Made by a program: the position numbers and the translations under genes. A DNA stretch of 31,986 nucleotides, taken from IMG/VR virus record IMGVR_UViG_3300033149_003138; one strand, given 5' to 3'. The notes under the pieces were generated by a model. It was not told the DNA's origin and ran no database searches. It saw nothing but the letters and a program-made list of their open reading frames with translations. How positions within the stretch are numbered: the first letter of the stretch is position 1; every line of letters begins with the position of its first letter. The stretch comes from an uncultured virus (IMG/VR IMGVR_UViG_3300033149_003138). Lineage: Duplodnaviria > Heunggongvirae > Uroviricota > Caudoviricetes. This document shows positions 9,587-14,492 of the stretch, piece after piece.

Positions 9587-9826
9587 GTGATTAGGATGCC
9601 GATCAAGAAACCAGACTTCGCTGACGATAACACGTTCACACAGAAGATAGACGTTCTCGACTTACTAATCAACGTAATCAGGGAAGAGGAGGAAAAACTG
9701 GAAGAATTGGTCACACGCCTTGAGATCGTTGCTTCTATAGTTGAAGAGAGATGCTCCGAGGCAGGTGATACAAGTTGTATCCATCAGGCTGTAGACCTCA
9801 AGGAATACCTGACTAAGGGGCAATAG
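9587..9826 (+). CDS. Small coiled-coil protein
   Basis: IDVLDLLINVIREEEEKLEELVTRLE heptads; GAGGGTGA SD favours ATG 9596. Confidence 0.7.
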   Translation: MIRMPIKKPDFADDNTFTQKIDVLDLLINVIREEEEKLEELVTRLEIVASIVEERCSEAGDTSCIHQAVDLKEYLTKGQ

Positions 9827-9854
9827 CTATAAACTCCGACACCCTCCCTCATAC

Positions 9855-10113
9855 TGGAGTCCTGCCCAGTGGTTCTTTAGAGCCATACTTACTCAAAGTA
9901 GCTGGGCAGGACATCCACATGCCGTTGGGTGGAGACCCTTCTGGTAGCACAGAAAAACCCTCAAGCTACGAAAGCCCCGTAGTATGCTCTTGAGGGTCTT
10001 CAGGGTCTCCACTATCTTTATCAAGATTGTATGCAAACGCTATCATGGATAGGGGTGTCTTCTCTGCCCTCTGGGGTTGAGGGGCATGGGTTGCTCTCAG
10101 CCCCTATCCACAA
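9855..10113 (+). ncRNA. Candidate structured ncRNA with three branched stem-loop domains
   Basis: Stems 9859-9869/9902-9912, 9929-9939/10002-10012, 9957-9965/9989-9997 and 10046-10055/10101-10110. TATAAA at 9828-9833. No ORF here. Confidence 0.55.
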
Positions 10114-10118
10114 AATTG

Positions 10119-10161
10119 AGTGATCTAGCGCGTGATCTAGTAGATCACTAACTAGATCACT
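10119..10161. repeat. Double inverted repeat of GTGATCTA(G/C)
   Basis: GTGATCTAG at 10120 and 10132; reverse copies GTAGATCAC at 10140 and CTAGATCAC at 10152. Confidence 0.85.
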
Positions 10162-10305
10162 TGTAATATTCATCGATTATTTTCAATTTTATATTGGGGT
10201 TAATTTGGAGTGGGGTGTAAGTTTGGTTAATCTCATTTACGGATACTACTCTCATGAATTTATTTCCAGTTTGTCGTGTGGGGCATAATGATTATTTCCT
10301 TATGC

Positions 10306-10428
10306 CTATTCAAGAGGAAAAATCGCCACTGTTTTTCCCTTCAACTGTTTTTCGACTTGTTTAAAGGCTCTACTTCGTCTTTTTTGGCTTTTCCCTTCGT
10401 ATATTTTAATTTTAACGACTATAGACAC
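10306..10428 (-). CDS. Small basic hypothetical protein (40 aa)
   Basis: GTG start after GGAAGGA; MSIVVKIKIYEGKSQKRRSRAF... Confidence 0.35.
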   Translation of the reverse strand: MSIVVKIKIYEGKSQKRRSRAFKQVEKQLKGKTVAIFPLE

Positions 10429-10494
10429 AATTCCTTCCTGAATGTTATCAGTTATCTGTTCTACACTGCCTCTAAACTCCAAGGTTATCCCCCC

Positions 10495-10770
10495 TCAGTC
10501 TTTGTTGTCTAGTTTTGGTTCCTGTTTTCTGAGTAGTCTTCCTAGCCTCTGGGATTTTCCGCTATCTAGCCAATTGTTTGCAGTGTTGACTGTATTTCTA
10601 GCTTTCTCGATTTTAATCCTCATTCTATACAGAGTGCTGTAGATGACTGATGGATTTACATCAAGCTGTTCAGCCACTTCTTTGACTTCCTTTTCTTTGA
10701 GAAGTTCAGCTATCCTGTACTCCCTTTCAGAGAAATATGATTTATGCACTATTGACATTATCATCCTCAC
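10495..10770 (-). CDS. HTH transcription regulator (LuxR/sigma70 region-4-like)
   Basis: FSEREYRIAELL...VKEVAEQLDVNPSVIYSTLYRMRIKI. TATA-like ACCTATATATT on the - strand at 10810-10820. Confidence 0.75.
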   Translation of the reverse strand: MRMIMSIVHKSYFSEREYRIAELLKEKEVKEVAEQLDVNPSVIYSTLYRMRIKIEKARNTVNTANNWLDSGKSQRLGRLLRKQEPKLDNKD

Positions 10771-10902
10771 CGTTTAGACCATATACTGATAATGTTTATA
10801 ATCTAAACAAATATATAGGTATTGCGATTTTTGTATATAAAATAAACAATATGTGTTTAAAGAGAAGGTTTCGACGGGGAGTTTTTTCGGTTGTTACCCT
10901 TA

Positions 10903-11766
10903 TTAGTGTCTCTCGAACATGTATTGGTTCATCTTTTGGGTTGCTGTCAGCGTGAATCGTCTGCTTTTGCTGATGTAGTTCTCGATGGTGACTAGGTGGA
11001 GACCTGTCCAGTTTCGTATCTCTGCAATGCTGAATCGTGGGTCTGAGCAGAAGAATGTGATCCTGTTCTCTCTTAACCAGTGGGGGTAAAATTTCTTACC
11101 GAACACTTCTTTATGCCATCTCCACCACGTCGTTCTATCGATGTTCCACGGTTTTTCTCCTGAGTCAAATCTTTCTATCCATTGGATGATTTCAGGCACG
11201 AACGTCCAGTCTGTTCTCAGTTCGATTGGGAACGTTGCTTGCTGTCTCGTAACTCTCTTCCCCTTCTTGAGCCTGAATGCGATGATTCTAAGGACTTCGT
11301 TGCCTTCCGTATCTTCGTCAAACTCGAAATGGTCTCTTGTTAAATGTCTGTTTTCCGTGTTTCTGAAGCCTCCCCAGAAACCAAGACAACAACCTGCTTC
11401 TTTACGATACTCGTTGAAGGAATGTGGGTTAATGGAATCGATTTTTTTAATCATGTCATCTAGGTCGAGTATAGCGTCCTGCTTCCCGTATTTATACCTG
11501 TGTGGGTATCTCACATTGTCATGTCTCTTGGGGAGGTTGAATTTGTGTCTATAGTGATAGATTCTCTCTGGGTCTAGGTCGGCATATGGGTTTATGCTTC
11601 CATCTGGAAGGGTCTCCACGCCTCCAAATCCAAGTGCCTGTGCTATCTGTTTTCCACTGAATCTTGGGTTTCCTTCTCTGTCAGTAAGCATCCATAACTG
11701 CTTCAACTGGGTCTCCAGAACCGCTTCCTGTTCTGGAGTGAGTACGCTATAGCCTCTCATCCCCAT
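10903..11766 (-). CDS. Tyrosine recombinase/integrase
   Basis: Catalytic set: R (GFRNTE), K (RLKKG), HxxR (PHWLR), TGLH, Y (IENY). Confidence 0.85.
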   Translation of the reverse strand: MGMRGYSVLTPEQEAVLETQLKQLWMLTDREGNPRFSGKQIAQALGFGGVETLPDGSINPYADLDPERIYHYRHKFNLPKRHDNVRYPHRYKYGKQDAILDLDDMIKKIDSINPHSFNEYRKEAGCCLGFWGGFRNTENRHLTRDHFEFDEDTEGNEVLRIIAFRLKKGKRVTRQQATFPIELRTDWTFVPEIIQWIERFDSGEKPWNIDRTTWWRWHKEVFGKKFYPHWLRENRITFFCSDPRFSIAEIRNWTGLHLVTIENYISKSRRFTLTATQKMNQYMFERH

Positions 11767-11785: not shown

Positions 11786-12099
11786 GTGATCTACCGTCGT
11801 GATCTAGTGACCCCCTAAAACAGAGTTTTTCAGACCCTCTGAAAACGATTACCCCCCTAGTAAATCTGCCCCGTTCTACCCCTCTCTCTAGGTCAAAATG
11901 ATCTAGTTGAGGGGAGCCGTTTTTGAGGCTTTTTTTCAAATCCATGCGTTTTCAGCCCTTATTGGGTTTGCACTAGATCGCAGGGGCGATGCAACTAAAC
12001 CTATGTTTAGTTGCACTTTATATATACCTTCCGTTTTTTGATCTGGTACCCTCTCTCCCCCTTGTGTGGTAGTTGAGGATGACCCCTACACTAGATCGA
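11786..12099. repeat. Dispersed (G)TGATCTAG-like motifs upstream of the recombinase
   Basis: GTGATCTAC 11786, GTGATCTAG 11799, ATGATCTAG 11898; reverse copies CTAGATCGC 11973 and CTAGATCGA 12091. Confidence 0.7.
11990..12015. promoter_or_regulatory. Perfect 11-bp inverted repeat (operator or recombination site) beside a TATA box
   Basis: TGCAACTAAAC-ctat-GTTTAGTTGCA followed by CTTTATATATACC. Confidence 0.65.
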
Positions 12100-12278
12100 T
12101 CGGGGTAGAGGCTTTGAATGCGATTGGCTGTTAGATATACATAAATGTAATGCTGATGCCTTGGGGCACAGTGTCCTGTGGCTGATGCTTCTTGATGGTG
12201 CTATCTCTGTCTTCCGCTTTGTTGGCTCTGATTCCCTAAAAGACGGTATGCTGTTATATATATATGAATGTAAGTGTA

Positions 12279-14492
12279 TTATAATGGTAAGTGGCTTTTG
12301 GCTTGGGCTTCCTCTGCTAGAGGTATCCATCCTGTCTTCTTTATGATGTCTTTGTACAGAAGTCCTCCTGCCCTTCTGCATCTGGGGCAGTATCCGAATT
12401 TGGCTACATCGGTATCGTGATACAGTTGGTGATCGGATATTGTTTGGAAGGCTCTGCCTGTCTTTCTTGCCATTTCTCTCATGCTTGCTTTGTCGATGCT
12501 TACGCCTCTCTTGTTTCTGATTTTGGCTGGTGCCGTGGCTTCGATTATTGCTACGTGTTCTTGGTCACTTACGCTATCTCCTGCTCCCTGTGGCTGAGAC
12601 TCTACCATGCCTTCATGTTCGATGACTTTGATTCCTGTTTCATGAAGGATGTTTTCTTTCTCTTGCTTGTGCCATTCGACTTCAGGGAACCATCCTACTC
12701 CAAGATTCCCTTCTTTGGTTAGGATCACGAAGTCGCTTGGTGACATATTTCTTATCCAATCTGGATTGAAATAACGGTAAATGAACTTGAGATCGTCTGG
12801 TAGTCCAAGGTATCCTTGTCCTTTGAAGATCGTGTTGTCCACTAATACACGTATGTCGATGTCGATTGACGTGTACTTCAGCGTATCCAGTTCGAGTGCA
12901 AGACCCATGTGGCGTGCCTCTCTGATCAGGTAGATCATGTAGGCTTTGGCTTGTGTCTGGTTGTTGCTCACCCTAAGTCGGCTGTAGTACAGGTTGGATG
13001 CTTCACGTACTATGCCTACAACCAGCTTCTTCCAGCCCTTTACTCCCCTCTCGTAGAGCAAGTCTGTGACGATGTTCACATTTCCATATTCGTCGTTCAG
13101 GTCTTTGTGGAGTGGACTTGCTGTAACAAGCACGTCGTACTTTCTTAGGTGGGTGTGGTTCAGCCTGTTGATGGGTATCTCATCAAAGCAGGAGTCCAGC
13201 GTGACGTTGGGTGAGTGGACTAGGGCTAGTTTCTTATCTCCGTTTGCTCTGCCAACACCATCCACCTCTGGGCATCTGCACCATGCAAGACCCTCTCCAT
13301 CTCTACTATTTCCAGACCAACATGTTTTGCCCTTACGCATTACAAGGATGAGTCCATTGGGCACAGTAACGTCATAGATTTTTCCCTTATAGTGAGTCTT
13401 CTTGATCTTATCTCTTCTAATCTGTGGATTAATTGCCACTCTACTAAGTATCACAATGTATTCAGGATGGTTGCCTTTTACTTCCCTTCCATCTTTCATT
13501 ACAGAGTTTCTGGATGGTCTCATGTATCTTGATGTACCGTATCCGCTTTTTATTGCGATCTCTTGGAAGTCATCTGCTAGTTTTTTGGATGATGTTGAAT
13601 AGGTGTTTTTCTGGGTTCTATGCCCATCTCCTTTTATCATTGTCTCAACAAGGATTTTAAGGAGTTTTGAGGGGAGGTCTTTAACTTCTTGAGGGATGTA
13701 TTTTTCTGATGATTTTCCTAATGGGTAGAAATAATCATACAATGCAGGTGAATTTATGATAACTCTGTCGTTAGACCAATAAGCGTCAACCCCAAGAACT
13801 TTACATGATTCGAGGATTTCCTTAATATCATCTTCCACGAAATGAACTATTTCGATCCTCTTTGTGCTAGGTTTAACGAAGTGTGGAAATCCCCGAGTTA
13901 TATACCATCCAATTATTTTGACTAAGTTTTCGAGTTTTAGGGCTGAGGAATGCTGGATACCTACGCTGATGGGGGTATTTTTAAAATAACCTCTCCATTT
14001 TGTTTCCCTTATGAAGCGATATGGTATATGATGCGAAGAGTATTTCTCAGATAGATTAGGAAACTTTATAGCAGTCATTATTTTTTGTGTTCTCTTCTTA
14101 TAATGTTCGACAAAGCATCTGTGGTCAGGTGTAATTAGTAGGTTGTAGGGCGTTTTCCCTTCTCCTATTTGAATCATTTCTCCGTCGTAATCATAGACTT
14201 GAATTGCTGTAGGGTGTTGATATTCTAAATAGCCTTCTTTATCTCTTGTAGCTAGAAGACTTTCCTTAGTAACATCCTTAAACAATAACCAGCCTTCTTT
14301 AGAAAGAGTGTAGGTATCTGAGTCAAAACATCCAAATATGTCGAAGACGGTGTGACCGTTCTCAAGATAAGTCAATGCTCTGTGTTCTAGGAAGCTGGAT
14401 TTGCCTCCCCCACGGATGGGGGACATAACAAAGTCGGTGTGGGGTCTGTTGGTTAGGATTTTCTGTGTTCCTCTCACCCATACGATATTCAT
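12279..14492 (-). CDS. FtsK/HerA/A32-like P-loop ATPase, intein-containing (putative genome packaging or extrusion motor)
   Basis: Walker A GGGKSS; Walker B-like VGIVREAS; arginine-finger-like IREARHMGL; C-terminal HTH-like segment and CPRC. About 396 aa after splicing. Confidence 0.75.
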   Translation of the reverse strand: MNIVWVRGTQKILTNRPHTDFVMSPIRGGGKSSFLEHRALTYLENGHTVFDIFGCFDSDTYTLSKEGWLLFKDVTKESLLATRDKEGYLEYQHPTAIQVYDYDGEMIQIGEGKTPYNLLITPDHRCFVEHYKKRTQKIMTAIKFPNLSEKYSSHHIPYRFIRETKWRGYFKNTPISVGIQHSSALKLENLVKIIGWYITRGFPHFVKPSTKRIEIVHFVEDDIKEILESCKVLGVDAYWSNDRVIINSPALYDYFYPLGKSSEKYIPQEVKDLPSKLLKILVETMIKGDGHRTQKNTYSTSSKKLADDFQEIAIKSGYGTSRYMRPSRNSVMKDGREVKGNHPEYIVILSRVAINPQIRRDKIKKTHYKGKIYDVTVPNGLILVMRKGKTCWSGNSRDGEGLAWCRCPEVDGVGRANGDKKLALVHSPNVTLDSCFDEIPINRLNHTHLRKYDVLVTASPLHKDLNDEYGNVNIVTDLLYERGVKGWKKLVVGIVREASNLYYSRLRVSNNQTQAKAYMIYLIREARHMGLALELDTLKYTSIDIDIRVLVDNTIFKGQGYLGLPDDLKFIYRYFNPDWIRNMSPSDFVILTKEGNLGVGWFPEVEWHKQEKENILHETGIKVIEHEGMVESQPQGAGDSVSDQEHVAIIEATAPAKIRNKRGVSIDKASMREMARKTGRAFQTISDHQLYHDTDVAKFGYCPRCRRAGGLLYKDIIKKTGWIPLAEEAQAKSHLPL
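13308..14330 (-). mobile_element. Intein (341 aa) with a LAGLIDADG-type endonuclease domain
   Basis: Block A CFDSDTYTL, block B ITPDHR, blocks F/G IYDVTVPNG...WSGN|S. LAGLIDADG-like IIGWYITRG and ETMIKGDG; TSSKKLADDFQEI. Confidence 0.92.

Follow-up and report, generated by a model that had tools for sequence, protein, structure and literature searches.

A candidate gene for a structured non-coding RNA next to a predicted tyrosine recombinase gene in an uncultured head-tailed virus

The phi29-type pRNA, a member of a family represented in Rfam, contains a three-way junction and carries its second domain on a single-stranded linker. Immunity and antisense RNAs of temperate phages, as well as the copy-control RNAs of plasmids, are simple hairpins that engage in loop–loop pairing with an overlapping transcript. 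Archaeal H/ACA guides consist of a hairpin with a pseudouridylation pocket, a K-turn or K-loop in the upper stem and an ACA box. The attC sites of integrons are simple imperfect hairpins with conserved core boxes at their base that can act strand-specifically as folded single strands, and IS110-type bridge RNAs are encoded beside the gene of an IS110-family recombinase. RNAs of the GOLLD and ROOL type are several hundred nucleotides long and consist of multiple domains, in which helices covary and loops are conserved. These structured RNAs of unknown function have been described by comparative genomics from the genomes of phages and prophages (cf. bioRxiv 10.1101/2024.12.08.627333).

Here, we describe an element at positions 9828–10113 of a 31,986-nt stretch of DNA from an uncultured virus of the Caudoviricetes (IMG/VR record IMGVR_UViG_3300033149_003138), referred to as the window in its full length. 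Like the GOLLD and ROOL RNAs, the element belongs to a viral or mobile genome and folds into several non-coding domains, with covarying helices, conserved loops and no known partner. Unlike these, it measures ~165–255 nt instead of several hundred and matches them neither by sequence nor by covariance model, and the taxon-labelled relatives of the recombinase encoded nearby belong to Asgard MAGs, not to bacteria. With phi29 pRNA it shares its viral origin, a three-way junction and a second domain attached via a single-stranded linker, but it comes without an Rfam match, a demonstrated ring-forming loop–loop complementarity or a link to a packaging motor. Comparable to immunity, antisense and copy-control RNAs, it is located beside an integration and regulator region and forms consecutive stem-loops that fold on both strands. 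In contrast to these RNAs, it is branched and covarying, and no complementary target was found in the window.

Fold, conservation and covariation of the element

A sequence-only reading of the window had proposed three consecutive hairpin domains, D1 to D3, in this stretch. All stems that it named were recovered at the proposed places. The domains and the genes on either side are as follows:

9587–9826, + strand: ORF of 79 aa, helical, with 52% identity over 63 aa to an ORF of the homologous locus L015
9855–9917, + strand: D1, a 16-pair stem with one bulge that closes a three-way junction with two 5-bp hairpins
9918–9927, + strand: unpaired linker between D1 and D2, invariant at 9919–9927
9928–10013, + strand: D2, a 12-bp stem closing a three-way junction with a short and a long hairpin
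10046–10110, + strand: D3, a hairpin with an inner hairpin, conserved in its 3' strand (10086–10104)
10903–11766, − strand: predicted gene of a divergent tyrosine recombinase, the 287-aa product of which is 83% identical to that of L015

The outer stem of D2 (9929–9939 with 10002–10012) is complementary at 11 of 11 positions and that of D3 (10046–10055 with 10101–10110) at 10 of 10; the 12-nt inner stem of D2 (9954–9965 with 9989–10000) reaches 92%, and the stem of D1 is part of a 30-nt imperfect repeat. In the predicted folds, D1 and D2 form three-way junctions in which hardly any base of the junction is left unpaired, and D3 is a hairpin enclosing a second one. The short hairpin of D2 exposes an invariant 6-nt loop and the long hairpin carries a one-sided bulge of 5–6 nt, which is invariant as well; four Watson–Crick pairs could form between this loop and the bulge. 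For the + strand of the 286-nt stretch, a folding energy of −119.2 kcal/mol was obtained, whereas dinucleotide shuffles averaged −89.3 ± 5.2 (z −5.81; none of 200 was as good). The reverse strand of the full stretch is equal in this respect (−119.3, z −5.43). Among the 11 intergenic regions of the window, the one that harbors the element has the lowest z (−7.2 / −6.1), followed by the neighbouring palindrome region (−3.1 / −5.0), and all others lie above −2.2.

A metagenome scan with the neighbouring 287-aa protein led to two loci, L015 (83% identical, on a 2,334-bp contig) and L016 (57%). The metagenome contig L015 is the single homologue of the RNA element that was reached, and the element occupies the same position there, with the counterpart of the 79-aa ORF on one side and the recombinase gene on the other. 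At L016, no copy was detected with the covariance model R1 in the 4 kb downstream of the recombinase gene. Between the window and L015, 144 of the 164 aligned positions of D1–D2 are identical (88%), compared with 731/864 for the recombinase gene (85%; 72% at third codon positions) and 140/235 for the 79-aa ORF (60%). D1–D2 is hence better conserved at the nucleotide level than the surrounding coding sequence. D3 has diverged further, being identical at 60% of its aligned positions (47/79), and the spacer that follows the element is effectively unalignable (99/189, 52%). A run of 34 nt that includes the D1–D2 linker is free of substitutions, and in D1 both hairpin stems and the ACUCA loop are invariant. 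The L015 copy likewise folds well, with a z of −4.13.

The alignment of the two copies contains indels of 1, 1, 5, 1 and 1 nt that break every frame. Consequently, there is no conserved reading frame, which argues against a coding function. The sequence-only reading had described the stretch as devoid of ORFs; this does not hold literally, as minus-strand ORFs of 33–50 aa overlap it, but it does hold in the sense that all frames are broken relative to L015. A small peptide starting from a conserved ATG at 9919 (9919–9993, + strand) was considered and judged non-coding: the ORF comprises 24 codons in the window and 16 in L015, codons 1–11 are identical, lacking even synonymous changes, and past codon 11 it is frameshifted by the 5-nt indel. 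A protein search with a 47-aa ORF translated from the element in the window gave no match, and three matches of a 68-aa ORF translated from the L015 element to long proteins with numerous matching segments were judged spurious.

A consensus structure was computed with RNAalifold from the window and L015, i.e. from only two sequences. It contains 69 predicted pairs, all 69 of which are standard pairs in both sequences. Ten of them are changed on both sides and a further four show one-sided, G-U-compatible changes; these counts lean toward structure, because the structure was derived from the same two sequences, and three of the double changes, located at the very base of D3, rest on a gapped alignment. 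Column shuffles yielded 5.1 ± 1.6 double changes on average, and none of 500 reached ten. In six slid controls, for which the 3' partners were moved by 1–3 columns, 0–1 double changes remained and 35–49% of the cells were paired. Examples of pairs changed on both sides are:

9868/9903 (D1): A-U in the window, C-G in L015
9968/9980 (D2 inner stem): A-U in the window, G-C in L015
9969/9979 (D2 inner stem): C-G in the window, U-A in L015
9970/9978 (D2 inner stem): G-C in the window, A-U in L015
10069/10081 (D3 inner stem): C-G in the window, G-C in L015
10051/10105 (D3 outer stem): A-U in the window, G-C in L015

The pair 10059/10090 of D3 is also changed on both sides. In D2, pair 9939/10002 turns from U-A in the window into U-G in L015, and a deletion affecting both strands of the long hairpin removes one of its base pairs. 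Judged from these two sequences, this is a conserved structured non-coding element whose structure is kept by compensatory substitutions, for which the sequence-only reading had suggested searching in homologues.

A different picture emerges for the base of the domains. In the window, all three share a TGGA/TCCA helix and end in TCCACA, TCCACT and TCCACA, respectively, exactly as had been noted before. In L015, the 3' side of the D1 base reads CTTCAC and the helix is kept in another register, including a change from G-C to G-U. The basal helix of D3 is CAGG/CCTG there and is followed by unrelated sequence; these four basal pairs differ in sequence, in an alignment that depends on a 6-nt gap. 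Because L015 deviates at both D1 and D3, the shared TGGA/TCCAC base is a feature of one genome and not a conserved motif.

The element matches no known RNA family in the collections searched, in line with its earlier description as a candidate novel ncRNA. None of the Rfam 15 covariance models matched the window at its gathering score. A permissive search (E ≤ 10) gave six matches at chance level, the best of which scored 18.3 bits against a gathering score of 74, and L015 likewise produced sub-threshold matches only. With ARAGORN, 0 tRNA or tmRNA genes were predicted in the window, and the same result was obtained for positions 9700–10300 with intron, low-score, tmRNA and mitochondrial settings; this covers attachment-site fragments that contain a complete tRNA or tmRNA gene.

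Transcribed strand, putative promoter and possible RNA ends

According to the sequence-only reading, several stem mismatches become G-U pairs on the + strand only. The counts bear this out, with 9 G-U pairs in the + strand fold versus 4 in the − strand fold of the window and 7 versus 2 in L015, and on the minus strand, A-C mismatches would take the place of several conserved G-U pairs. For the element without its flanks, the + strand fold is more stable than the − strand fold in the window (−115.6 vs −109.5) and in L015 (−100.5 vs −90.1), and likewise in the alignment fold (−85.8 vs −73.25). In a simulation, all wobbles were repaired and nine wobble-type mismatches were then placed randomly on either strand; the observed bias of −6.5 kcal/mol toward the + strand fell within the lowest 4.3% of 300 trials. 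With parameters for single-stranded DNA, the strands are equal (−61.3 vs −60.5; z −7.4 and −8.0). Taken together, the folds appear to favour the + strand as the transcribed one to a moderate, not decisive, extent.

Three short conserved blocks bear on the possible start and end of such a transcript:

9820–9835, + strand: promoter-like block with TATAAA at 9828–9833, 16 nt identical in the window and L015
9849–9859, + strand: block where the transcript is predicted to start, at the foot of D1, with the two genomes agreeing at all 11 positions
10007–10021, + strand: tail behind D2, identical at 14 of 15 nt and containing a short T-run, a possible 3' end of a D1–D2 core RNA

The first block overlaps the stop codon of the 79-aa ORF in the window, whereas the L015 ORF reads through it in another frame. 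Since the reading frames differ between the genomes, coding does not explain its conservation. The block, positioned ~27 nt before D1, is followed by 13–14 unconserved nucleotides that differ by one in length; conservation then resumes at 9849, and the second block is situated 16–26 nt downstream of the TATAAA hexamer. A conserved box, an unconserved spacer and a conserved block would fit a TATA-type promoter with a start at ~9853–9858, which favours the earlier suggestion that the TATAAA at 9828 places a transcription start near 9855. The hexamer is not enriched in the window (24 found vs 19.9 expected), so that its weight derives from conservation only. Boxes of the form [CT]TATAA[AG] were also read by eye 25–38 nt before several start codons of the window, for example that of a gene for a 91-aa HTH protein.

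As the T-run in the tail after D2 consists of just three T, a terminator role of this segment is conjectural. Directly after D1, D2 or D3, no T-run was found in the window; T4 runs occur ~70 nt past D3, in the window only. A scan for intrinsic terminators, i.e. a G+C-rich hairpin followed by a T-run, returned one weak site inside D1, where 1.1 would be expected from shuffles, and such a terminator was dismissed as an identity of the element. Long-range pairing of the TATAAA block with the T-rich segment behind D2 was likewise discarded; such a helix would comprise 7 bp in L015 and 5 bp in the window, with no compensation.

Genes and repeats in the neighbourhood

The element marks the meeting point of converging gene blocks, with the + strand genes ending at 9826 and the − strand ORFs at 10306–10495. 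No family match was found for the 79-aa ORF. The 287-aa protein, too, has no match in Pfam, PHROG or NCBIfam. An AlphaFold model based on 17 relatives (pLDDT 78.1) was compared with the PDB by Foldseek, which gave 16 matches at E ≤ 0.001 and pointed to Cre, XerH, XerA, the Tn1549 integrase and XerD. In 17 sequences, the residues R135, E138, K167/168, H229, R232 and Y264 are invariant. A profile search against PDB sequences produced weak matches judged spurious, plus XerH at E = 0.049. Judged by its modelled structure, the protein is a divergent tyrosine recombinase. Its family members measure ~285 aa, and the copies in L015 and L016 are encoded at 400–1263 and 40–897, respectively. An IS110-type bridge RNA was rejected as an identity of the element, as the neighbour has the predicted tyrosine recombinase fold of Cre and Xer and no IS110 Pfam domains.

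Among 385 candidates, 19 proteins were related to the recombinase at E ≤ 0.001. Two of these carry NCBI labels from MAGs of Thorarchaeota and Hodarchaeales (Asgard). The archaeal host that these labels may indicate should be taken as a lead only. For Hodarchaeales and Thorarchaeia, associated head-tailed viruses have been reported (Microbiome 2026;14:238, PMC13700489). In the main text of that paper, the terms 'non-coding' and 'ncRNA' are absent, and the same applies to the main text of another paper on Asgard viruses (bioRxiv 10.64898/2026.08.12.739948). A full-text literature search that combined Asgard viruses with structured or non-coding RNA returned no relevant paper. None of this proves that the element is unpublished.

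Next to D3, a group of short repeats is located:

10119–10161, no strand assigned: four GTGATCTA half-sites in palindromic arrangement, probable protein-binding sites

This 8-nt sequence has seven copies in the window, where 1.4 would be expected and none of 100 shuffles attains that number, and eight in L015, with copies at 56–63, 10119–10161 and 11786–11806 of the window and at 195–380 and 1260–1301 of L015. In both genomes, direct and inverted copies are clustered to the left and right of the recombinase gene, at differing distances from the RNA element. A regulator or the recombinase itself probably binds to them. One copy also precedes the first + strand ORF of the window by ~30 nt.

The segment between the element and the recombinase gene (10162–10902 in the window, 1302–1780 in L015) is not homologous in the two genomes. 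Each version encodes a small HTH protein (91 aa in the window, 92 aa in L015); these proteins show no similarity to each other and are encoded in opposite orientation. The segment looks like an exchangeable regulator or immunity cassette. A basic 58-aa ORF is also present in the window at 10306–10482 (− strand). On the minus strand, TATAAA boxes are found at 10188–10193, 10795–10800 and 12017–12022. The box at 10795–10800 is located ~25 nt upstream of the start of the HTH ORF, a spacing that suggests a leaderless mRNA, and the one at 12017–12022 lies upstream of the recombinase operon. The box at 10188–10193 could drive a transcript that runs over the GTGATCTA cluster into the element.

Farther downstream, a 737-aa ORF (12279–14492, − strand) with an N-terminal GGGKS P-loop was noted, for which neither a Pfam match nor a PDB sequence match was found. 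Its residues ~53–400 match segments inside variously annotated phage genes (terminase, nicotinamide phosphoribosyltransferase, nucleotidyltransferase, HNH endonuclease), which suggests an intein or homing-endonuclease insert in an ATPase. The 333-nt gap between the ATPase gene and the recombinase operon (11946–12278) has an unremarkable folding z (−1.2 / −2.0); it contains a perfect 8-bp hairpin adjoining a TATATATA run, as well as further CTAGATC-like motifs.

Candidate explanations and searches for further members

We tentatively read the element as the gene of a previously undescribed structured RNA family that is independently transcribed from the + strand, an interpretation to which we give somewhat less than an even chance. 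The putative TATA-type promoter at 9828–9833 would start a + strand transcript at ~9853–9858, at the foot of D1. The RNA core would be formed by the two three-way-junction domains D1 and D2, joined by their invariant single-stranded linker, and the transcript may extend into the third, faster-evolving hairpin D3. This would result in an RNA of either ~165 nt for the core, ending at ~10020, or ~255 nt, ending at ~10110. The folded RNA could then act in trans as a scaffold or decoy to which a protein of the virus or its host binds. A folded, protein-bound RNA is preferred to a plain antisense RNA because the helices covary and the loops, the D2 bulge and the linker are invariant, a combination that would be expected of a defined tertiary fold or of a protein partner. 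In the window, the invariant single-stranded segments have only scattered complementary matches of 8–10 nt. Protein binding is probable as judged from anatomy and position. Position also suggests a role in an integration or immunity region, as the element adjoins the recombinase and regulator genes. A more specific variant, in which the RNA is a subunit of a ribonucleoprotein of this element group, e.g. as a cofactor or guide of the recombinase or as a decoy for a host defence or RNA-processing protein, appears highly improbable; we know of no description of RNA-assisted site choice or directionality in the tyrosine recombinase superfamily.

Alternatively, the element may operate at the DNA level. 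Hairpins or cruciforms arising from single-stranded or supercoiled DNA could be the point where replication or priming begins, mark the DNA for packaging or be acted on by a recombinase, and the GTGATCTA sites and an adjoining AT-rich stretch may contribute. This is unlikely. The strong and equal folds of both strands obtained with DNA parameters (z −7.4, −8.0) are in its favour, as are the location where converging gene blocks meet, the contact with the four half-sites and a 36% G+C stretch in the window and the tyrosine recombinase gene at a distance of 0.8 kb, and G-T wobbles are tolerated in DNA hairpins, too. The adjacency to repeats and AT-rich sequence is not conserved, however, since the L015 cluster lies beyond another gene, beside the recombinase gene. 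Moreover, origins and recombination sites do not usually take the form of branched three-way junctions with invariant loops, and the conserved TATA block with its unconserved spacer fits a promoter better. As to a single-strand origin, which should fold strand-specifically on a replicon that encodes a rolling-circle Rep, both DNA strands fold equally, and no Rep, initiator or primase family was found among the ORFs of the window, although the latter represents only part of a genome. Integron attC sites resemble the element as imperfect inverted repeats near a tyrosine recombinase gene with a structure more conserved than the sequence. They were nonetheless rejected, as the domains described here are branched and have highly conserved interiors, the basal TGGA/TCCAC is not kept in L015, and the domains are not separated by gene cassettes. 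A cis-acting role as the structured 3' end of an early + strand operon transcript, which could shield against 3' exonucleases or insulate the converging units, seems rather improbable. It would account for the fact that the element begins 1 nt past the stop codon of the last + strand ORF and between the converging blocks. Yet, a stabiliser or terminator needs neither invariant loops, an invariant linker nor two three-way junctions, a T-run typical of termination is missing, and the conserved TATA block with the unconserved 13–14 nt behind it would be left unexplained.

Conceivably, the RNA could also be read from the minus strand, starting at ~10163 from the TATAAA at 10188–10193 under the control of the GTGATCTA sites at that start. 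The placement of this box ~25 nt upstream of the repeat cluster, a single GTGATCT ~55 nt from the D3 side in L015 and the significant fold of the minus strand (z −5.43) are compatible with such a transcript. We nevertheless regard it as distinctly improbable, given that its promoter region is not conserved between the window and L015, that the minus strand fold is worse once trimmed to the element and that the A-C mismatches described above would replace several conserved G-U pairs. The proposal of the sequence-only reading, namely three equivalent units processed or recognised by a protein at their TGGA/TCCAC base and reminiscent of H/ACA guides, deserves next to no credence. In the window, all three domains do possess the basal helix and end in TCCAC(A/T), and archaeal H/ACA sRNAs likewise comprise one to three consecutive hairpins. 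As the motif is lost in L015 at D1 and D3, though, the ideas of a processed array and of an H/ACA guide fall with it. D1 and D2 are three-way junctions without a pseudouridylation pocket. Neither a K-turn nor a K-loop was recognised by reading the folds, in agreement with the earlier remark that no clear K-turn is visible; tandem G-A pairs beside a 3-nt bulge are absent, and the D2 bulge is one-sided, without unpaired bases opposite. The ACA triplet is not conserved either, with ACT following D2 in both genomes, unrelated sequence after D3 in L015 and a differing 3' flank of D1, and the Rfam H/ACA-type snoRNA match does not exceed chance (17 bits, with the gathering score at 35; E = 3).

If the element is indeed an RNA gene, as we tentatively prefer, it would represent a conserved compact RNA of a poorly understood group of viruses or mobile elements. 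With a defined putative promoter, two three-way junctions and invariant loops, it would offer handles for experiments and might lead to a protein partner of viral or host origin in organisms that resist cultivation. From the window and L015, the covariance model R1 was built, which can be used to find further members in related contigs. Run on the window and 17 loci, it recovered the two sequences that it had been trained on and otherwise only weak echoes on the reverse strand, and genome G001 gave nothing. In viral contigs, exact D1 and D2 patterns had 0 matches; searches there with the recombinase protein and its alignments gave 9, 355 and 34 candidate stretches and one with the C-terminal part of the 737-aa ATPase gave 18, none of which was confirmed. 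The full 737-aa ORF led to 14 distant viral loci via its central insert only, and none of these carries the RNA element. Among 87 stretches of genome contigs obtained with the recombinase alignment, the sole match, of 21 residues in a Desulfurivibrionaceae MAG (L017), was treated as spurious. Neither blastn of the element against phage and plasmid collections nor tblastn of the recombinase against phages gave a match. Sequencing runs were searched as well, with no RNA run containing the element sequence. One DNA run (X1), labelled as a hydrothermal vent metagenome (share 0.09), contained identical contigs of 151–268 nt that include positions 9829–9979 and show no variants.
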